A DNA stretch of 64,000 nucleotides, taken from IMG/VR virus record IMGVR_UViG_3300031965_000001, positions 7,267 to 71,266 of that record. One strand, written 5' to 3'. The DNA comes from a virus. This document shows, one piece after another, positions 2,789 to 64,000 of the stretch. Both the position numbers and the translations under genes were made by a program. The notes beneath the pieces are model-generated. The model did no database searches. It saw only the letters and a program-made list of their open reading frames with translations, and was not told where the DNA came from. Each line of letters opens with the position of its first letter. The stretch's first letter is position 1.

Positions 2789-3886
2789 TTATTCTTCATC
2801 TTTAGAGAACGGTAGTGAATAAGGAGGCTCAACCATTTTCCATATAATTTCAGAATAGTCCTTTCCATCATACATGGAAAATAGGATGGAACTATACTCA
2901 CCACCCATTGCTCTTGCCATAGACGCAAAGTATTTTTTCCTCTCTTTTTGATCTTTTATTTTTTTCATCGAACTCATATCCATAATTGCTTCAAGTGTCT
3001 CCTTAGCCTGAGATTCTATATCGTTGTAATCGAATTCTATGTCCCTATATACCTTATTTGCCCATCTGAAAAATTCATCTGGCATTCCCTCTATCAGTTT
3101 CAATATGTCATCACCATTCTTCATGCCTTCCCAAATCTTTCGAGAGCTTGTCTGCGTTAAAATAGAGTGGAACCTGACATATTCTGGCAATTTGATTTTT
3201 ACTCTCAGATCGTCTTCAAATTTAACAACAACCCCTTCATTTTGCCCATCATCTATTGCAGAATCCAAATATTCATCTTTTGAAAGTTCAAATTTTTTCA
3301 CAATAGGAAACCCTACATTCTTAGCCACAGCCTCACAATATTTTCTGCCCATACTCTTCCCTGTCTCATTATCCAAAACATCTAGGAGTATAAGTTCCTC
3401 AAAATTATATTTTACGACGATTCTATTTTGTGGGTGAATTAACTCGAATAAAAGACTTTTCCCCTCTGGGAATCTAAAAATTGGCAAATATTTCTCAAGG
3501 AATAAATTCTTTCCAATTTCTGCTTGGACTGATTTGAAACTACCGACCGTGGAGAAACGCAAAAAACCACCGTACTTAAAAACCATAAAAAGAGATCCGT
3601 CCATTTTTTCCGTCACCTCATATTTTTTACTCCAATCTATTTTTTGCAATATAATCCCGTCGTGTTCTGAGTCGTTGAAAAATTTTCTAAATCCCCTCGC
3701 AACAACATTCCCACCATCGTCGAGAACCAATCCCCTACAAATTATAGAAAGATCGTCCCATTTTCTTTCGTAGGCACATTTTGCTGTGTATTTATATATT
3801 GTGAGCGGTAATCTGCTGTGCCGAGATGATCTAACGAGACCGCGCTCCACTAGATCATTTATTTTTTCTATGTCAACCCTCGTCAT
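2789..3886 (-). CDS. rnlA: RNA ligase 1 (T4 RnlA-like)
   Basis: CRGLVLD, adenylation motif TEKMDGS, LFELIHPQNRIVV, EGVVV, RVKIK. Confidence 0.9.
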   Translation of the reverse strand: MTRVDIEKINDLVERGLVRSSRHSRLPLTIYKYTAKCAYERKWDDLSIICRGLVLDDGGNVVARGFRKFFNDSEHDGIILQKIDWSKKYEVTEKMDGSLFMVFKYGGFLRFSTVGSFKSVQAEIGKNLFLEKYLPIFRFPEGKSLLFELIHPQNRIVVKYNFEELILLDVLDNETGKSMGRKYCEAVAKNVGFPIVKKFELSKDEYLDSAIDDGQNEGVVVKFEDDLRVKIKLPEYVRFHSILTQTSSRKIWEGMKNGDDILKLIEGMPDEFFRWANKVYRDIEFDYNDIESQAKETLEAIMDMSSMKKIKDQKERKKYFASMARAMGGEYSSILFSMYDGKDYSEIIWKMVEPPYSLPFSKDEE

Positions 3887-6986: not shown

Positions 6987-7814
6987 ATGGTATTTGTGTC
7001 GGCTCCTAAAAAGAGAAAGGGCGAAGACGACTACTACAAGGTAGTAATTATTAGCGACCCCCATGCACAATTCTTAGACCAAAAAGCATTTAATCTATTC
7101 TTACAAATTTATACAGAAAATAAATTTGACCTTCTCGTTTGCAACGGTGACTTCATGGATTTCCCAACACTCTCGTCTTTCGCTAAGAGAATTGAGACCT
7201 TTAACCCATATATCATTAAAGAATATAGCCTTGGAGAAGAAATTGATTTCGTCGAAAAAAATATATTAGACCCCCTTCATAACGCACAAAAAAATACACC
7301 AAAATTATTCAGGATAGGAAATCACGAAAAGCGCTTCCTCCGACCAGTCAGAGACAACGCCACTGCCCTGTCTGAAATCCTCGAAGAGTGCAGAAAAAGA
7401 GGATCAACAAAACTAGAAGAATTACTACACTTTGACAAATATAACACAAAAATCAGCTACCGACATACCGATATTCTTAGGGGAAAATTTGCACTAATCC
7501 ACGGTACACACCTTGGACAAAATAGATGCGAAAAATACCTCAGAGAATTTATGATGTCTGGTACGAGCGGACATTCACATCAGGGTCTCCGAGGAGAAAA
7601 AACAATATACGGGAAACAGGGAATAGAATGGGTAGAGAGCTTTTGTCTGAGAACAATAAAAAATATCGAATATATGGAAGAGGGGATGATACCAAATTGG
7701 TCACACGGATTCGTAACGGTATGGTTCAAAAAGGGAAGCGACCGTATGCACATCAAACAACATAAATTCAATGGGTACGAGTGTGAGTTCCACGGAAAGG
7801 TTTACCGCTCTTGA
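6987..7814 (+). CDS. Calcineurin-like metallophosphoesterase
   Basis: SDPH, NGDFMD, GNHE, IHG, GHSH motifs; start placed at ATG 6987. Confidence 0.85.
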   Translation: MVFVSAPKKRKGEDDYYKVVIISDPHAQFLDQKAFNLFLQIYTENKFDLLVCNGDFMDFPTLSSFAKRIETFNPYIIKEYSLGEEIDFVEKNILDPLHNAQKNTPKLFRIGNHEKRFLRPVRDNATALSEILEECRKRGSTKLEELLHFDKYNTKISYRHTDILRGKFALIHGTHLGQNRCEKYLREFMMSGTSGHSHQGLRGEKTIYGKQGIEWVESFCLRTIKNIEYMEEGMIPNWSHGFVTVWFKKGSDRMHIKQHKFNGYECEFHGKVYRS

Positions 7815-12702: not shown

Positions 12703-13294
12703 ATGAGACCTGTGAACAGATTAAACATAGAGAATGGACAAAAGTTCAATAAGTGGACAGTTATTAGGGAAGAAGATCCAGTCATATATAGCAACGGAAA
12801 AAGAAAAAGACTTTTCCTATGTAGGTGTGAATGTGGGAAAGAGAATGTTGTACGCCTTGATAATATTAAAAATGGTAGGTCTCTATGCTGCATGAACTGC
12901 AAAAATGTTTTTCGAGCACACAGTATGTCTAAAACCGAAGAACATAATATATGGATGGGGATACAGAACAGATGCTATAACTCCAAGGGGAAACCACATA
13001 AAAATTACGGAGGAAGGGGTATATCAATGTGTGAATCATGGAAAAATGATTTTATGGAATTCTATAACGACATGGGGCCAAGACCGTCAAAAAAACATTC
13101 TATTGATAGAATTGATAATAATGGGAATTATTGCAAAGAAAATTGTAGGTGGGCAACGCAGGAGGAACAAAATAGTAATACTAGACAAAATTTCTATATA
13201 ACACACAACGGAGAAACTAAAACATTGGCTCAGTGGGAAAGGAAAACTGGTATATCCAAAACAGCAATAAAATACCGTATAAATTTTAAAAAAA
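12703..13294 (+). pseudogene. HNH endonuclease, 5' part, interrupted by the IS1595 element
   Basis: GQKFNKWTV, CRCECG, YGGRGI, SIDRIDNNGNYCKENCRWAT; frame continues at 16749 once the insertion is removed. Confidence 0.88.
13287..13294 (+). repeat. 8-bp target site duplication, left copy
   Basis: TAAAAAAA, identical to 16741-16748. Confidence 0.9.
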
Positions 13295-13395
13295 GGCGAC
13301 TATCCCTTGGAAGCTAGGACACTATGATTTACTCTCTTACTGTGACAGGCGGACTATGGCAGTAGACCCTTTCATTATTGGCTTCTGGCTCGGCG

Positions 13396-13743
13396 CTATT
13401 TTTTCTTTCTTTTTGACTTCGGTAGCTTCAGCACTGGTGTATCTCCGTCTTCGGCATTACCCAAATCATTAGCCGATAGTTCCATCGGTTCAGAAGTGCC
13501 ACTTTCTTTTGAGTATCCTTTTGAGTGTTGTAGTTTTGCAATCTCTTCACGTTGCTGTTCAATTTGACTATATTGACCTTGGATTTGTTGTCCTTGGTAT
13601 TCATGCTCCCTTACAAATCTCCCCACTCTATAGCTCCCGTAACAAATAGCAGGAATGACTACGACAAGAAATCCCCAGTTGCCCACAATACATTGCCACG
13701 CAAAACTTGCTATTTGTTCTACGTCTGGCGGGACATTGCTCAT
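13396..13743 (-). CDS. IS cargo: membrane-anchored hypothetical protein
   Basis: One TM helix then a Gln-rich coil. Confidence 0.6.
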   Translation of the reverse strand: MSNVPPDVEQIASFAWQCIVGNWGFLVVVIPAICYGSYRVGRFVREHEYQGQQIQGQYSQIEQQREEIAKLQHSKGYSKESGTSEPMELSANDLGNAEDGDTPVLKLPKSKRKKK

Positions 13744-14003
13744 TTCTTCTTTGGCAGTGAAACTTTAAGTTCGCCATATTTCTTTTCGTATTCCTCTATT
13801 TTTTCCTGTAAACGAAGCATTAACTTCTTAGCATGTTTTGGAGTAAATACGTACTGTCCATCAACAACAGAGCCTGTCTGTAATGCCAATATAAAGTGTT
13901 CTTCGTTAAACAAGACAAATGCCCTGTCACAAAAATAGCGACGCGGATCGCCAATTTCTACTTTTACTGTTTCTTCGTCATTCTGCTTTGTGGGTTTTGC
14001 CAT
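13740..14003 (-). CDS. IS cargo: DUF3467-like small protein
   Basis: RYFCDRAFVLFNEEHFILAL...FTPKHAKKLMLRLQEKIEEYEKKYG pattern. Confidence 0.55.
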   Translation of the reverse strand: MAKPTKQNDEETVKVEIGDPRRYFCDRAFVLFNEEHFILALQTGSVVDGQYVFTPKHAKKLMLRLQEKIEEYEKKYGELKVSLPKKK

Positions 14004-14043
14004 AGTGAAATGGGGAAAGAAACTAGACGATAGTATCAGTCTG

Positions 14044-14697
14044 TTATCTTTTGCTCCACCTATCTTTTACTTTTTTGAAGTATTCAATTCTGCTATCAAT
14101 CTTTACGATTTCTCTCGGATAAAAAGAGAGCATTACATCACACAGTTCAATCATCCAATCCTTTCTACTGTAATGTGAGTTAACAAGAATCTTGTTGGAG
14201 TTGGCAATCTGAATTTGCCCCCACCCCAATGCACCTACAGTAAGACATTCCCAAGATAAAAATTCGATAGGAACAAAATGAACCTTATCCACTTCAATAT
14301 GATTTTCATTCGCTGAGTATGCAACCATCAATATCACAAAGTAGTTTTTATCATCTTCATAGAATCTTGCCAGCCTCTCAACGGATGTTAAGTTTGGCAT
14401 ATTAAAGTGTGTATCCATTCTATGTGTTTTAATATCAACAACATGGTAGCATGAATTCTTGTCTGTGAATGCAACATCAGCCATTGCTCTTCGTGCAAAG
14501 TCAGAAGAGTATTCGGAAATATATTTGCCAAGAATTTTATCAAAATTGTCCTCCAAAACGCTTTGTATTGCATCACCTACTGCACGAGGGCTTGATATTG
14601 TTCTGGCTGATAAAAAGTCCTCTTCTGCGTTCAGAAAATCCTTTATCTTTTTTTGGATAGAAACATACTTATCTGTGCTGAATATAATGCTGCTCAT
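14044..14697 (-). CDS. IS cargo: type II restriction endonuclease, PD-(D/E)XK
   Basis: ADVAF...VDIKT catalytic pattern; PNLTSVERLA and QIQI recall HincII-type enzymes; TAATG overlap with the MTase stop. Confidence 0.7.
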   Translation of the reverse strand: MSSIIFSTDKYVSIQKKIKDFLNAEEDFLSARTISSPRAVGDAIQSVLEDNFDKILGKYISEYSSDFARRAMADVAFTDKNSCYHVVDIKTHRMDTHFNMPNLTSVERLARFYEDDKNYFVILMVAYSANENHIEVDKVHFVPIEFLSWECLTVGALGWGQIQIANSNKILVNSHYSRKDWMIELCDVMLSFYPREIVKIDSRIEYFKKVKDRWSKR

Positions 14698-15692
14698 TAC
14701 GAAACCAGAGAAAATAAGTCTGCTTCCTGTTGTACCCTATTTGGCTTGCCTTTCTTCTGGTCTGCAAGCGAATTCCTTTCCCAAAATACTCCATCACAAT
14801 ATCCCTGAATAGAGTTATCACCTTCTGCCATTTCTAGCCTTCTTTCAGTCAAACATGCGTAAAGTTTGTCGCTTTCCACTCCACAATATCTCCTTCCTAA
14901 CTTCTTAGCTACAACCGATGTTGTACCAGAGCCAAGAAACGGATCAAAGATCATATCACCCTCTTTGGAGCTTGCCAGTATTATTTTAGCAATGAGCTTT
15001 TCAGGTTTTTGTGTTGGATGATCTGTATTTTCTGGCATTGACCAGAAGGGAATGGAAATATCAGTCCAGAGATTGGAAGGTGATGTCAGACGGTAATTCC
15101 CATTTTCTTCTGATTGCCAGTCCTTAGCCTCTCCATTTTCATTTTTATATGGAGCTATCACTTTCTTTTTCAATTTAACTTCTTCCACATCGAAGAAAAA
15201 ATCATCACCTAACGTTCCGTACCAAATATCCTCAGAGCAGTTTTTCCAGTTAGTTTTTGCCCCACGACCTTTTTCTCTTTCCCATGTAATTCTATTTCGT
15301 ATGGTAAAATACTTCGACATTACGCGTTCTACTGCACTAGATGATTTCCAGTCGCAACAGACATATACGGAAGCAGTAGGCTTGAGTATTCTTGTAAGTT
15401 CAGATAGCCATGAATCTACATATTGTTTGTAATCATTATCCTGCATCTTCTTAAAAGAATTGGAATTAAACGTCTTATTTAAGTTGTACGGCGGATCAAT
15501 CACCAACAAATCAACGAAATTATCTGGTAAGCAATGTACTGCTTCAAAAAAGTCCTGATTTATCGTTTTACCATACAAGTAATCAGGTGTCACCCTTTCC
15601 TTTAATTCTATTAGATTGTGTGACAGTCTTTTCATTTCCTGTTCATCTAGCGTAATAGTTTTATTGCGTTCTGCACGAATTTTGTTTTCCAT
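14697..15692 (-). CDS. IS cargo: beta-class N6-adenine/N4-cytosine DNA methyltransferase
   Basis: DPPY precedes HPTQKP and FDPFLGSGTT. Confidence 0.93.
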   Translation of the reverse strand: MENKIRAERNKTITLDEQEMKRLSHNLIELKERVTPDYLYGKTINQDFFEAVHCLPDNFVDLLVIDPPYNLNKTFNSNSFKKMQDNDYKQYVDSWLSELTRILKPTASVYVCCDWKSSSAVERVMSKYFTIRNRITWEREKGRGAKTNWKNCSEDIWYGTLGDDFFFDVEEVKLKKKVIAPYKNENGEAKDWQSEENGNYRLTSPSNLWTDISIPFWSMPENTDHPTQKPEKLIAKIILASSKEGDMIFDPFLGSGTTSVVAKKLGRRYCGVESDKLYACLTERRLEMAEGDNSIQGYCDGVFWERNSLADQKKGKPNRVQQEADLFSLVS

Positions 15693-15764
15693 AAAACGAA
15701 GGGGTAATTGACCTCATACTAGCGACATTTATTTCTAGTAGCAAAAAATGCTATAATCCCCTAC

Positions 15765-15929
15765 ATGCCAGACCATTCCACTGACCAGAACAGCTTCTTT
15801 AGGCTCCTCAACCTTGCCGCTACGACACGCGTGAAAGGAGAAGATCGAAAAGATGGTTTCCACTCTTCCGATGATTGTAACGCCACTGAAATTCAGAAAC
15901 ATAAGCGTGGAGCATCTTCGGAGAAATAA
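15765..15929 (+). CDS. Putative 54-aa leaderless ORF convergent on and overlapping the transposase 3' end
   Basis: TGC-TATAAT at 15749-15757, 7 nt to ATG; MPDHSTDQNSFFRLLNLAATTR... Confidence 0.4.
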   Translation: MPDHSTDQNSFFRLLNLAATTRVKGEDRKDGFHSSDDCNATEIQKHKRGASSEK

Positions 15930-16677
15930 CGTGATGCGTACCGTCTAGGCTGCGTTTTAGTTGGCTCCAAAAGCCTTCAATGGTGTTTGTATGCGTTCCA
16001 TTCTCTTTGGCGTACTGCTTAGCTCCATGCTGTACCGTGTCATGCTCCATTTCCAGTAGTGTTGCGATTTTCTTGTAGGTCTTGAGTTCATCGGTCATAA
16101 CTTTCGTACCCTTGGCGATATTGTTTTGGAAGTGTGGAAGCAAGGTTGACGCTCTTACGTTCTCTACAACGGAAGCGTTCATTTTGCCCTTTCTCTGTAC
16201 GGCTCCAAACACAATCGTTTTTCCTTCTGCTCCACGCCCACGTTTACCTTTTCGCTTACCACCTACAGCCGTTTCATCGGCTTCTACTTCCCCGAAAAGC
16301 ATTGTGGCATTCTCCTTCATTAGCTTCCGTACTTGATGCCCGATTCTATAGGCGCATTTGTAGGTAACGTCCAAAGCCCTCTCCAGTTCCTTCGCTGATA
16401 CACCATTGCGAGATTGAGAGAAAAGAAAGATGGCAAAAAACCACTTCACAAGGTCTGTAGAAGAATGGTCAAAGATCGTTCCCTCCTTCGGGAAGATGTG
16501 AGAGCAGCCGTTCTTACAGGTGTAGCAAGCCCGTGTAGGGTGCTTGTAGAACTTTGTCTCCCCGCATTTCGCACACTTTGGTTCGGGGAAGCGTGCGTTG
16601 AAGAGATATGCCAGACAGGTGTTGTTATCGGGGAATCTCTTGTGGAAGTTGAGAACAGAGAGGCGTTGTGCTTTCAT
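15820..16677 (-). CDS. IS1595-family DDE transposase
   Basis: Zn ribbon CAKC...CKNGC, VEADET, MTDE, TNTIEGFWSQLKR, EFQWRYN. Confidence 0.95.
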   Translation of the reverse strand: MKAQRLSVLNFHKRFPDNNTCLAYLFNARFPEPKCAKCGETKFYKHPTRACYTCKNGCSHIFPKEGTIFDHSSTDLVKWFFAIFLFSQSRNGVSAKELERALDVTYKCAYRIGHQVRKLMKENATMLFGEVEADETAVGGKRKGKRGRGAEGKTIVFGAVQRKGKMNASVVENVRASTLLPHFQNNIAKGTKVMTDELKTYKKIATLLEMEHDTVQHGAKQYAKENGTHTNTIEGFWSQLKRSLDGTHHVISPKMLHAYVSEFQWRYNHRKSGNHLFDLLLSRVS

Positions 16678-16740
16678 AGGTGAGTAGGAATGTACCTATA
16701 GTCTAGCTTTTACCTTCCTAGTCGTCAAGGGATAATCACC

Positions 16741-16748
16741 TAAAAAAA
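16741..16748 (+). repeat. 8-bp target site duplication, right copy
   Basis: TAAAAAAA. Confidence 0.9.
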
Positions 16749-52442: not shown

Positions 52443-52627
52443 TTTTTTAGGGAAAGGCATCCTTTATGCTCTGCATTACATTCTTCTCCTGACAGATCAC
52501 AGTCCATTTTTATGCAAGCCTCCCACCATTTCCTATCTGCGTACTCTTCCCAGCAATCTTGGCAGAACTCATCCGCCCATTCTGCGATCTTGCCGCATTT
52601 GCATTTTGCTTCTGTCTCATCATTCAT
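52439..52627 (-). CDS. Small Cys-rich hypothetical protein
   Basis: CxC...CxxC; coupled at both ends. Confidence 0.55.
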   Translation of the reverse strand: MNDETEAKCKCGKIAEWADEFCQDCWEEYADRKWWEACIKMDCDLSGEECNAEHKGCLSLKK

Positions 52628-53436
52628 CTGTACGGGCAGAAGAAATTATTAGAACAACTGGGCAAATTATATTTCCCCTCCATCATATCCTTACATATCG
52701 ACATGCCCCGCTTCGTATCTTCATAGAACCCAACAAGATCTTTCATTGTAAATTCTACTGGCTGGTTCGATACGGTCGCATCCTTATTACCATTCTTTTT
52801 AATCAATGAAATAACATCTATCATTGGAATTTCCCCAGTAACAGCCCATCCGAAATAACAATACCCCTTGAATTGATATGAATTCATACACTTGCTTTTT
52901 GTCCATTTTGTTGTGCCACTCTTAAAGTCCGCTATTCTCATCTTTTGCCCCTTTAATCCATCATTAGATAAAATTTTACTCAGGTCGATGATCCCATAAA
53001 GAGGAATATCTAAAAATTCATTCGGATTCTCTGGATGACGAATCCATGTTAGAAATTCTTTTTCTGGCGATCCATCTCTTAGTCCTAATGTATCTAATTT
53101 TTCTTTCAGAAGCCGAACATGGGTCTCTATTTGATCAATATACTCCAGACCAGCCCTCGCTGCTATCTCCGCTTCCTCTGGCAAATCTTCCCCCTTTATC
53201 GCAAGCTCTATTACATAATGAACAAGCTCCCCATATCCATAAATATGCTTCTTGTCCTTAAATGGATCTTCCTGTTCTTTCTTAATGTATTTTCTGTAAA
53301 AGCATGATGGACAGGATTTCAACATGTTGTGTCGAGTCGCGCTCCAGTAGAATGGTAGTTCTTCTGATTTCTTCTTCGCTGGAGTACCGTACCATGTTGG
53401 AATTTTCTCAGTCAATAGGTAACTATTCCCTAACAT
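52624..53436 (-). CDS. PD-(D/E)XK nuclease (RecB/Cas4-like); start codon now supplied by the mobile element end
   Basis: WSAT...CP, YGELVH, GIIDL...IADFKSG, QFKGY, C...FCPYR. Confidence 0.85.
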   Translation of the reverse strand: MLGNSYLLTEKIPTWYGTPAKKKSEELPFYWSATRHNMLKSCPSCFYRKYIKKEQEDPFKDKKHIYGYGELVHYVIELAIKGEDLPEEAEIAARAGLEYIDQIETHVRLLKEKLDTLGLRDGSPEKEFLTWIRHPENPNEFLDIPLYGIIDLSKILSNDGLKGQKMRIADFKSGTTKWTKSKCMNSYQFKGYCYFGWAVTGEIPMIDVISLIKKNGNKDATVSNQPVEFTMKDLVGFYEDTKRGMSICKDMMEGKYNLPSCSNNFFCPYR

Positions 53437-53560
53437 ATAGTTTGGGGAACTCTACGTTTCACAGGGCGAGTAACTCTCACACAGTCCCGTAGGGCTGTGC
53501 TACCATCTCCTCCCTCCGCGTCTTGGTTGGCACCCAACCAGTGCTTCAGAACCATTTTGG
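53400..53560 (-). ncRNA. Predicted TnpB omega RNA (scaffold plus flank-derived guide); boundaries approximate
   Basis: Hairpins TGGTTGG/CCAACCA, CACAGCCC/GGGACTGTG and TTCCC/GGGAA over the tnpB 3' end; position expected for omega RNAs. Confidence 0.6.
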
Positions 53561-54687
53561 CAGCGTTAATGTCTCTGTCGTGTTTTGTAGAACACTTTGG
53601 ACATTCCCATTGCCTTATTGATAATGGAAGCGATTGACACACGAAATTACACTGTGAGCAGGTCTTCGAGCTTGGGAAGAAGCGACCAACTTTCTCTACT
53701 GAGTTGCCACGCCACTTCTGCTTATACTCCAACTGTCTGATGAATTCACTCCATGAGGCATCCCCTATGGATTCCGCAAGGCAATGATTCTTCATCATGT
53801 TGCTCACTGCCAAATCTTCACAGACGATGACAACGTGGTTCTTGTTTGCCAACTTCTTCGAGATATGGTGTAAGTGATTAGATCGTGTGTTTTTTATTTT
53901 CTTGTGAAGTCTAGCTACTTTTAATTTGGCTACAGTACGGCTCTTTGATCCTTTTTGTTTTCTTGAAAGACCCTGTTGAATCTTCTTCATTTCTTTTTTT
54001 AGACTCTTCTTTGGATGGATGTTCTCGTACTTCTTTCCATCACTGGTAATAGCAAGGTGGGTGAGTCCAAGGTCAAGACCTATGGGGTCTTTCTTTTTTC
54101 CTCTTGGTTCTTTCATTTCTTCCTCTGAAACAATCGTAGCCCACCAGTCCCCACAGGCATCTACCTTGATTGTAACGGAGTAATTCTTATTGTCCTTCGG
54201 AGGGGGGTTCCCCTTAAAATAAATGGAAAGACCACGTTCTATATGTAATTTCTTTCCATTGATTCTCCATCTATCGGGTTTTCTGAAGGATTGGTTTGGA
54301 TTGTACTTGGATTTGAATTTAGGATAATTTGCCCTCTTCTCAAAGAAGTTTTTGTATGCTGCATCTAAATCTCGGAGAGATTGCTGAAGGGGGTGTGTCT
54401 GCGCTTCTCCAATCCATTTATACTCATCCTGCTGCTTTAGTTTTGTTAGTGCCATAGCAGTTTCATGGTAGTACATTTTTTCTCCTCTCTCTAAATAGGC
54501 TGTTTTTCGTTCATTAAGAAAGTAGTTCCAAACAAATCTACACGCTCCGAAGGTTTTCCTTAGCTTCTCCTCTTGATACTTTCGAGGATAGAGCTTGAGC
54601 CTATAGGTCTTTTTTACTTCCATGATTGAATGGTACACGGATGATATGGTTGTGTCAATAGTTACTATACTATAGGGAATAGTCACG
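53418..54687 (-). mobile_element. Non-autonomous TnpB element with TIRs and 8-bp TSD, 1270 bp
   Basis: 24-bp TIRs GGTAACTATTCCCTAACATATAGT and CGTGACTATTCCCTATAGTATAGT (19/24); flanks AGTCAATA 53410-53417 and AGTTAATA 54688-54695; removal restores MEILTEKIP. Confidence 0.82.
53430..54623 (-). CDS. tnpB: TnpB RNA-guided endonuclease
   Basis: HTH YRLKLYP...FGACRFVWN; RuvC GLDLG, VCEDL, DRDINAA; Zn finger CSQC/CPKC; all three acids intact; promoter TTGACA-17-TACCAT-6-ATG. Confidence 0.95.
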   Translation of the reverse strand: MEVKKTYRLKLYPRKYQEEKLRKTFGACRFVWNYFLNERKTAYLERGEKMYYHETAMALTKLKQQDEYKWIGEAQTHPLQQSLRDLDAAYKNFFEKRANYPKFKSKYNPNQSFRKPDRWRINGKKLHIERGLSIYFKGNPPPKDNKNYSVTIKVDACGDWWATIVSEEEMKEPRGKKKDPIGLDLGLTHLAITSDGKKYENIHPKKSLKKEMKKIQQGLSRKQKGSKSRTVAKLKVARLHKKIKNTRSNHLHHISKKLANKNHVVIVCEDLAVSNMMKNHCLAESIGDASWSEFIRQLEYKQKWRGNSVEKVGRFFPSSKTCSQCNFVCQSLPLSIRQWECPKCSTKHDRDINAAKMVLKHWLGANQDAEGGDGSTALRDCVRVTRPVKRRVPQTIC

Positions 54688-54702
54688 AGTTAATATCTCC
54701 AT

Positions 54703-63144: not shown

Positions 63145-64000
63145 TCAGCGGTGGAGTTTCGGATAACCTCTTCGATTTCTTTTTGGAGTTTTTGATCACC
63201 AGAGACTTCCTCTCTCATCGCAACCTCACCTTTCCATTTTCTATCTGCGAATGAAATCATTGGACCTGATTTTTTAATCACTCCTGTCATTAGACCAGTG
63301 GTTATTATGTCTTGCACAAGATCAAAACCTAGACCATATCGGATAATCACCTTCGTCTTCCCGAATGGCTTTCCTACTTTATTCTTCTTTACATCAATCG
63401 TCGTCTCCCCAGTCTTCTCATCTATCTTTTTTGATGACGCGTGTAGAACGATGCTCGATGCGTAGGGTAGGGCTTTCCCACCTGGGCTTGTGATTGGATT
63501 TCCATACATAGCCATACTTGCCCTGAGCTGGTTGATGAAGATGCAGGTACATTTGTTTTTAGATGCCTTGGGTGAAATTTTCCTCAATGCCTGACCCATG
63601 AGTCTAGCCCTTGCCCCGAACTCTGCATCTCCTATCTCTTTTGTCAGTTCCACATTTGGAGTGAGCTGCGCTACAGAATCCAAAACAACGACCTTAAATT
63701 CCCCAGAAGAAACGAGGGCATCCATTATTTCTAATGCCCCCTCTGCTGAGTCTGGCTGGGAAAGAAAAATATTATCAATATCTAGTCCCAATGTCCTTGC
63801 ATAATCTGGAGATAGGGCGTGTTCTATGTCAAGAAACGCCAACTTCTTATTGGGATACTTTTTTTGTGCCTGCGCCAAAATCGTTATCGCAAGACTGGTT
63901 TTCCCGCTGGCTTCCATTCCAAGAATACTCATTATTCTGCCCTCTGGGATTCCTCCTCCGATAATAAGGTCAAGGCTAGGAAGACCAGACGAAAATCTGT
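63141..64000 (-). CDS. recA: RecA/UvsX recombinase (5' end outside the window)
   Basis: SGLPSLDLIIGGGIPEGR, GMEASGKT, VVLDSVA, FINQLR, GGKAL, KNKVGKPF. Confidence 0.95.
   Translation of the reverse strand, partial: RFSSGLPSLDLIIGGGIPEGRIMSILGMEASGKTSLAITILAQAQKKYPNKKLAFLDIEHALSPDYARTLGLDIDNIFLSQPDSAEGALEIMDALVSSGEFKVVVLDSVAQLTPNVELTKEIGDAEFGARARLMGQALRKISPKASKNKCTCIFINQLRASMAMYGNPITSPGGKALPYASSIVLHASSKKIDEKTGETTIDVKKNKVGKPFGKTKVIIRYGLGFDLVQDIITTGLMTGVIKKSGPMISFADRKWKGEVAMREEVSGDQKLQKEIEEVIRNSTAE

Follow-up and report, generated by a model that had tools for sequence, protein, structure and literature searches.

Introduction

TnpB, from which Cas12 descends, serves as a compact genome editor, and what is understood of its biology comes almost wholly from IS605 and IS607 elements, which excise without leaving a scar. 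Here we describe a 1270-bp tnpB element located on the minus strand at positions 53418-54687 of a 64,000-nucleotide stretch of the IMG/VR virus record IMGVR_UViG_3300031965_000001 (positions 7,267 to 71,266 of that record). This whole stretch is referred to below as the window, and its numbering is used unless another locus is named; it belongs to a 105.9-kb virus contig that is ~70% complete. The element carries one intact tnpB and is bounded by terminal inverted repeats and a target-site duplication. It is probably a non-autonomous member of the IS1595 family (ISXO2/Merlin-related, with DDE transposases), whose only cargo is tnpB together with a guide-RNA scaffold and which was inserted by a transposase acting in trans.

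The closest described systems are the TnpBs associated with DDE transposases. The main text of Altae-Tran 2023 (PNAS, PMC10691335) describes six such branches, DDE-1 to DDE-6, all with inverted terminal repeats, as well as solo TnpBs that have the ends of DDE branches and are presumed to be mobilised in trans; the partner family it names is IS630. The accessible text of the Kojima 2026 review (PMC13565253) gives ISL2, IS630 and IS1031 as DDE partners. The initial annotation of the window, which listed only IS200/IS605 and IS607 transposases as the usual partners of prokaryotic TnpB, was incomplete in view of these six branches, and the new TnpB-transposon partnership it proposed had been anticipated, since DDE-linked TnpBs and trans-mobilised solo copies both appear in the main text of PMC10691335. 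No paper linking TnpB with IS1595 or ISXO2 was found in the literature searched, which did not extend to the supplements of Altae-Tran 2023; IS1595 goes unnamed in the main text of that paper, so one of its DDE branches could be linked to IS1595. The arrangement described here is a variant of a published kind, in which at most the partner family is unnamed in the literature searched.

As in the DDE-associated systems of the main text of PMC10691335, the TnpB of the window lies between inverted repeats, no more than 250 bp (12 nt here) separate its 3' end from the transposon end, it stands solo, and a transposase element with similar ends is present elsewhere. There, however, the ends of solo copies are nearly identical to those of transposase-bearing copies, whereas here they are similar and no copy with tnpB and the transposase in cis was found. 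A second likeness is to Fanzor, carried by eukaryotic transposons with terminal inverted repeats and target-site duplications (PMC3627910; PMC10711439): in both cases a TnpB-type nuclease is the cargo of a DDE transposon, the scaffold runs into the terminal repeat, and the duplication starts the guide. Unlike the element described here, Fanzor systems are found in eukaryotic or giant-virus hosts and belong to other transposon superfamilies; the Fanzor survey of Bao and Jurka 2013 (PMC3627910) names neither Merlin nor IS1595.

Anatomy of the element and its insertion site

The longest inverted repeat of the region pairs 53419-53441 with 54664-54686 (23 nt, 83%), and a direct reading of the two ends gives 19 matches in 24 over 53418-53441 and 54664-54687. 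In an inverted-repeat scan of ~120 TnpB loci, the element scored 13 against a background of 8-10 and ranked among the top three; the other loci with at least this score were mostly palindromic hairpins or AT-rich runs. A palindromic hairpin artefact was considered for the element as well and rejected, as the loop bases of the two ends are inverted, not direct, relative to each other and the left end lacks a fold. Between the repeats, tnpB is the only long open reading frame (ORF) with a family match, and no DDE_Tnp_IS1595 transposase is encoded inside the element.

The repeats are flanked, on the minus strand, by the 8-mers TATTAACT on the left and TATTGACT on the right, which are identical at 7 of 8 positions; their sole mismatch is a synonymous leucine change. 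The empirical chance of a 7/8 or better match between 8-mers at such spacing in the phage genome is 6.7e-4. We also considered the 8-mer as part of a promoter motif and rejected this: TATTGAC occurs 25 times in the genome, yet the left copy sits in a coding start.

Excising the element with one copy of the 8-mer yields ATG GAG ATA TTA ACT GAG AAA directly after the TAG of the upstream gene (54705-54703), and past the element the frame of the interrupted PD-(D/E)XK nuclease runs on GAG AAA ATT CCA. The only homologue of this nuclease among 5.8 billion proteins, P0124 (55% identity), was found on 18 contigs, all from a related phage. There its start is ATG GAG GTA (MEV), and it overlaps the upstream gene's orthologue (50% identity) with no tnpB between them. 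Since this relative has the flanking genes adjacent, lacks tnpB and starts its nuclease with MEV, the insertion is real, and the 8-mers TATTAACT and TATTGACT are the target-site duplication that it left. The 24-bp inverted repeats, the 8-bp duplication (here with one mismatch) and the restored nuclease start of the initial annotation were thus all recovered, and the empty allele that it had suggested looking for exists in the phage encoding P0124.

The nuclease is still encoded after the insertion, thanks to a new in-frame ATG (53436-53434) that comes from the right end and overlaps the tnpB stop. As at window 53434-53436, the loop of the last scaffold stem holds TATATG in two related loci, and its ATG starts the downstream gene and overlaps the tnpB stop (L136:1500-1502 and L139:1366-1368). 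A conserved start codon in this TATATG loop would soften insertions into gene starts.

Comparison of the element ends with IS1595 inverted repeats

Members of the IS1595/Merlin group have GG-terminal inverted repeats, 8-9-bp duplications and a transposase with a zinc finger and a DDE_Tnp_IS1595 domain (PMC8101967). An element of this family resides in the window and proved to be as first described, with an AT-rich 8-bp duplication that is perfect (Table 1). This 3.4-kb element carries, as cargo, a DNA methylase and a DUF3467 protein along with two ORFs of 217 aa (unassigned) and 115 aa. The resident transposase is 83% identical to copies in Candidatus Peribacteria/Peregrinibacteria genomes, and the host (Peribacteria) IS1595 copy has repeats of the resident type and a perfect TAATATTT duplication. 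This host copy (L229:3936-5686) is ~1.75 kb long and carries only the DUF3467 protein and the 115-aa ORF, so either the phage lineage gained the methylase module or the host lost it. Six further IS1595 elements on phage contigs gave the consensus GG-Y-R-A-Y-TATCCCTTGAC-R-ACAAGTA, and the duplications next to them, again 8-bp and AT-rich, include AAATTTTA and TCAAATTA.

Thirteen IS1595 repeats, all from other genomes, were the sole input to a weight matrix that was then scored along both strands of the phage genome, 211,772 positions in total. The phage's own IS1595 ends took ranks 1 and 2, the right end of the tnpB element rank 3, and its left end rank 27. In an anchored alignment, the right end matched the host IS1595 repeat at 17 of 25 positions, a level reached by only 18 of 39,993 random 26-mers. 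The right end of L049, a locus whose TnpB is 72% identical to that of the window, is the best matrix hit of its contig and matches the left repeat of this phage's IS1595 at 19/24 positions ungapped; L136 and L139 likewise have their top matrix hits at the right end, each within its own contig. The fourth-best matrix match (63328-63351, minus strand, score 13) lies inside an ORF, has no partner repeat within 6 kb, and represents either a chance match or a solitary end remnant.

These comparisons support placing the ends of the element in the IS1595 inverted-repeat family. With that family the element shares terminal repeats of the GG(Y)(R)A(Y)TATCCCT type and an 8-bp AT-rich duplication, and the resident and host IS1595 copies carry cargo genes too. 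The element is unlike other family members in having no transposase, an extra T in its repeats, a left end beginning with CG, and, as cargo, an RNA-guided nuclease whose scaffold is fused to the repeat.

Table 1. Features of the tnpB element, the resident IS1595-family element and the second TnpB of the phage (window coordinates unless a locus is named)
Feature	Position	Strand	Remarks
Left target-site duplication copy, TATTAACT	54688..54695	-	Codons 3-5 of the ancestral nuclease start; ancestral ATG 54702-54700
Left-end terminal inverted repeat, CGTGACTATTCCCTATAGTATAGT	54664..54687	-	IS1595 matrix rank 27/211,772
Right-end terminal inverted repeat (+ strand GGTAACTATTCCCTAACATATAGT)	53418..53441	-	IS1595 matrix rank 3/211,772
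Right target-site duplication copy, TATTGACT	53410..53417	-	Also the first 8 bases of the predicted guide
tnpB, 397 aa, intact	53430..54623	-	Pfam HTH_OrfB_IS605, OrfB_IS605 and Cas12f1-like TNB; RuvC Asp/Glu/Asp and zinc finger conserved
tnpB promoter (TTGACA, 17-nt spacer, TACCAT)	54630..54658	-	Inside the left end; read from sequence
Predicted omega RNA scaffold	53418..53630	-	Overlaps the tnpB 3' end, ends at the element boundary; 5' limit approximate
Interrupted PD-(D/E)XK nuclease	52624..53436	-	Pfam PDDEXK_1; now starts inside the right end, MLGNSY replacing MEI
Resident IS1595-family element	13295..16740	-	26-nt inverted repeats; perfect TAAAAAAA at 13287-13294 and 16741-16748
Resident IS1595 transposase gene	15820-16677	-	Candidate transposase source; 285 aa, full-length IS1595 DDE by Pfam (1e-39)
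Second intact TnpB, 385 aa	L005:1400-2680 (G000:C1:104019-105298, outside the window)		Canonical IS605-type ends, no tnpA nearby

TnpB relatives and their flanking repeats

The best relative of the window TnpB among 5.8 billion proteins is 72% identical, and no near-identical copy was found; in IMG/VR, JGI metagenomes and GTDB genomes the best identity is 40-52%, and curated phage records gave no relatives of the locus. TnpBs at least 48% identical are present only on phage-like or short metagenome contigs, and identical proteins that occur on many contigs (P0068, P0083) are all in one context.

Homologues neighbouring a Y1 or serine tnpA, which the initial annotation had listed (with use of the same ends) among several contrary observations, were not found among the loci with at least 48% TnpB identity (0/22); the remaining ~280 loci include 53 with a Y1 and 7 with a serine neighbour, confirmed by Pfam on representatives. 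In a maximum-likelihood tree, the comparison that the same annotation had called for, the window TnpB falls into a 12-row clade (support 100/100), every member of which lacks tnpA, and, within it, an inner 8-row clade (98/98). Outside this clade, Y1-linked TnpBs are dispersed through the tree, and the serine-linked ones cluster in a distinct clade. Among TnpBs accompanied by any transposase, the nearest are Y1-associated and 44-45% identical. On another branch, sister to the serine-linked clade, the 38%-identical TnpB of L107 (545-1822) is flanked by an unrelated 30-nt inverted repeat and may be another, independent TnpB with inverted-repeat ends.

Within the clade, L053 and L137 are flanked by perfect 9-bp repeats (TGTATACTT and TGAGTGTAC, respectively, both 9/9), each present only at the two flanks of its element, and the flank repeat of L236 matches at 7/9 positions. 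These repeats differ in sequence from one relative to the next and begin at one aligned position past the right end. The quality of the left-end repeat declines from the window to L053 and L136 and further to L137 and L236, which is the chief difficulty for an explanation by DDE transposition alone.

Flank repeats of this sort could also be the core of a site-specific recombination or the trace of a microhomology-mediated insertion, the IS1595 resemblance then being fortuitous. The variable length of the repeats (8, 9, 9 and 9), the imperfection of two of them and the presence of relatives without a convincing left-end repeat would fit such an origin. We regard it as highly improbable, as neither the clade members nor their neighbourhoods were found to contain a recombinase, each element has a core sequence unrelated to the others, IS1595/Merlin duplications are defined by exactly this span of 8-9 bp (PMC8101967), and the weight-matrix and alignment statistics argue against a chance resemblance.

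Comparison with IS200/IS605 and IS607 elements

The 105.9-kb contig, at ~70% completeness, contains neither a Y1 (PF01797) nor a serine (PF00239) transposase, and no transposase other than that of IS1595 was found on it. Three features set the element apart from IS607: it has no serine recombinase, it does have repeats and a duplication, and the serine-linked TnpBs lie in a clade of their own. It likewise departs from IS200/IS605, lacking Y1 TnpA and matched direct subterminal hairpins and possessing the repeats and duplication that those elements do not have; no hairpin forms at its left end (-2.6 kcal/mol, z = 0.13). The phage's other TnpB (L005, 42% identity) served as a control and showed matched GC-rich hairpins at both ends together with the usual end sequence; one phage therefore carries both end types. 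To tnpB-only IS200/IS605 elements such as this one (the IS1341 group), the window element is alike in tnpB architecture, in a scaffold that overlaps the 3' end, and in the homologous position of the right boundary. Those elements, however, carry matched subterminal hairpins and have neither inverted repeats nor a duplication; the window element is their opposite on all three counts.

When the alignment of right ends was extended to Y1-type relatives, the boundary after GTTACC corresponded to the canonical end after TAGTTCAC; TATTGACT therefore belongs to the flank and not to the element. This correspondence also hints at descent of the nuclease-RNA module from an IS605-type element, the end of which either was turned into an IS1595 repeat or resembled one beforehand.

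An ordinary tnpB-only IS200/IS605 element (IS1341-like), moved in trans by a Y1 transposase, could in principle account for the locus, with TTAAC as the target, TTGAC as an end motif and the inverted repeat as a by-product of a hairpin. TTAAC is indeed given as a known IS605 target in the accessible text of PMC13565253, the right end aligns with canonical Y1-type ends (hairpin and TAGTTCAC), and Y1 is the transposase of the nearest TnpBs that have one. This origin nevertheless appears unlikely. It has to place TATTGACT inside the element, against the aligned boundary; it has to reconcile a hairpin by-product with a hairpin-free left end and with loop bases inverted between the ends; and it calls for a Y1 gene that is absent both from the contig and from the neighbourhood of every clade member. 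Moreover, flank repeats of 8-9 nt that differ between elements far exceed a 4-5-nt motif, and the IS1595-repeat match of the right end, at rank 3 of 211,772, would need coincidence.

The tnpB gene, its promoter and the predicted guide RNA

The initial description of tnpB as intact is borne out: its three TnpB Pfam domains match at 1e-16 to 6e-22, residues 5-363 match the solved ISDra2 TnpB (structures 8bf8/8exa) with an E value of 2e-69, and the RuvC columns D184, E269 and D351 do not vary when the protein is aligned with 13 relatives. The promoter predicted inside the left end has its TACCAT 6 nt before the tnpB ATG, which would make the transcript nearly leaderless, and the same -35/17/-10 arrangement is present in the relatives L049, L053, L055 and L137. 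The motif CTATTGACA, which resembles a standard -35 region, occurs seven times in the phage genome; the tnpB promoter uses it (window 54651-54664), and it is also present at L005:1197-1212 and 3142-3156.

RNAalifold applied to the right ends of eight relatives revealed a conserved multi-stem fold of 46 pairs, 21 of them with compensatory changes, and the fold of the right end has a z-score of -3.5; no Rfam match to the scaffold was found. The last scaffold stem, GTTCC/GGAAT, uses bases 7-13 of the right inverted repeat, which supplies its 3' arm, so the proposal that the terminal stem of the guide RNA draws on inverted-repeat bases is upheld by the alignment. The predicted guide runs from 53417 down to ~53402 and begins with the duplication; by analogy with TnpB biology, the bases of TATTGACT would form the guide start. 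This guide differs from the reconstructed empty site by one mismatch.

No consistent target-adjacent motif could be derived from four elements. The base preceding the left flank repeat is A in 4/4 definable elements, and the first base past the right end is T in 8/8 (the window, L049, L050, L053, L055, L136, L137 and L236), with nothing longer in common. True IS1595 duplications likewise tend to begin with T. The conserved A and T may reflect a target preference of the transposase or a minimal nuclease-adjacent motif.

Proposed origin of the element

On the reading that we consider probable, an IS1595-family transposase supplied in trans would have recognised both inverted repeats and inserted the element through a staggered cut into codons 3-5 of the phage nuclease gene, repair then duplicating 8 bp. 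The gene at 15820-16677 could encode this enzyme, or the Peregrinibacteria-like host could supply one that is a closer cognate. The right repeat would play three roles: it would bind the transposase, form the last stem and tail of the scaffold, and keep the nuclease translatable by providing a new start codon. The guide would be copied from the duplicated target and the adjoining flank, as the scaffold ends at the element boundary, and each transposition would for the same reason re-aim TnpB at its own insertion site. TnpB may also cut empty alleles and bias inheritance in co-infection, as the initial annotation conjectured.

Several observations weigh against an IS1595 origin. The repeats of the element have an extra T relative to IS1595 repeats, and the left end begins with CG instead of GG. 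The alignment of the right end with Y1-type ends described above counts here as well, since part of the IS1595 resemblance may be inherited rather than acquired. Ungapped, the element repeats match those of the resident IS1595 element at only about half of their positions. The resemblance to the resident ends noted in the initial annotation accordingly stands at the level of the family, through matrix ranks 3 and 27, and not at that of a close match between the two elements. No copy was found with an IS1595 transposase and tnpB inside one repeat pair: in tblastn, the IS1595 transposase matched none of the TnpB loci, and TnpB matched just one of 32 IS1595 loci on phage contigs, partially, over 52 aa at the edge of L339. 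L136 and L139 have no duplication and share a common right flank with differing left flanks, and L137 and L236 have flank repeats (9/9 and 7/9) yet poor left-end repeats. Finally, the element is single-copy: the 105.9-kb contig contains no second copy, and no second insertion site was found for it anywhere, so we infer mobility from its footprint alone.

Some of these observations would also suit a fossil, that is, a single ancient DDE insertion that is now immobile and persists or spreads by phage recombination, with or without cutting by TnpB. Such a history would account for the imperfect duplication (7/8) and the differences between the repeats (5/24), for a single copy in the genome with a best relative of 72%, for the common element and right flank of L136 and L139, and for the decayed left-end repeats of L137 and L236. 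We think it improbable, however, as tnpB, its promoter and its scaffold are intact and conserved across the clade, and the perfect 9-bp repeats of L053 and L137 point to fairly recent insertions there. It also concerns the present activity of the element and not its origin, and is therefore compatible with insertion by a trans-acting IS1595-family transposase.

The capture of tnpB by an IS1595-type element, as the initial annotation put it, is retained in so far as the non-autonomous unit, its repeats, its duplication and its IS1595-family ends are concerned. The resident transposase, whose repeats match those of the element at only about half of positions, is one candidate for the mobilising enzyme.

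Significance

What a duplication-leaving DDE transposon gains from a guide-RNA nuclease is a question raised in the accessible text of Kojima 2026 (PMC13565253). The element described here offers a compact and fully bounded case, in which the predicted overlap of scaffold and repeat, a predicted guide that starts with the duplication and a candidate helper transposase come together on the same 106-kb phage genome and are open to direct test. The IS1595 copies described above, in turn, document exchange of this family between Peregrinibacteria-like hosts and their phages. We tentatively advance a wider and more doubtful idea, namely that a lineage of phage TnpBs fused the 3' end of its scaffold to an IS1595 repeat, so that one 24-nt sequence would serve both a DDE transposase and a nuclease and each fresh 8-9-bp target would start the guide. 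Such a lineage might constitute a self-retargeting gene drive in phages of the candidate phyla radiation (CPR) and a bacterial counterpart of Fanzor within transposons.

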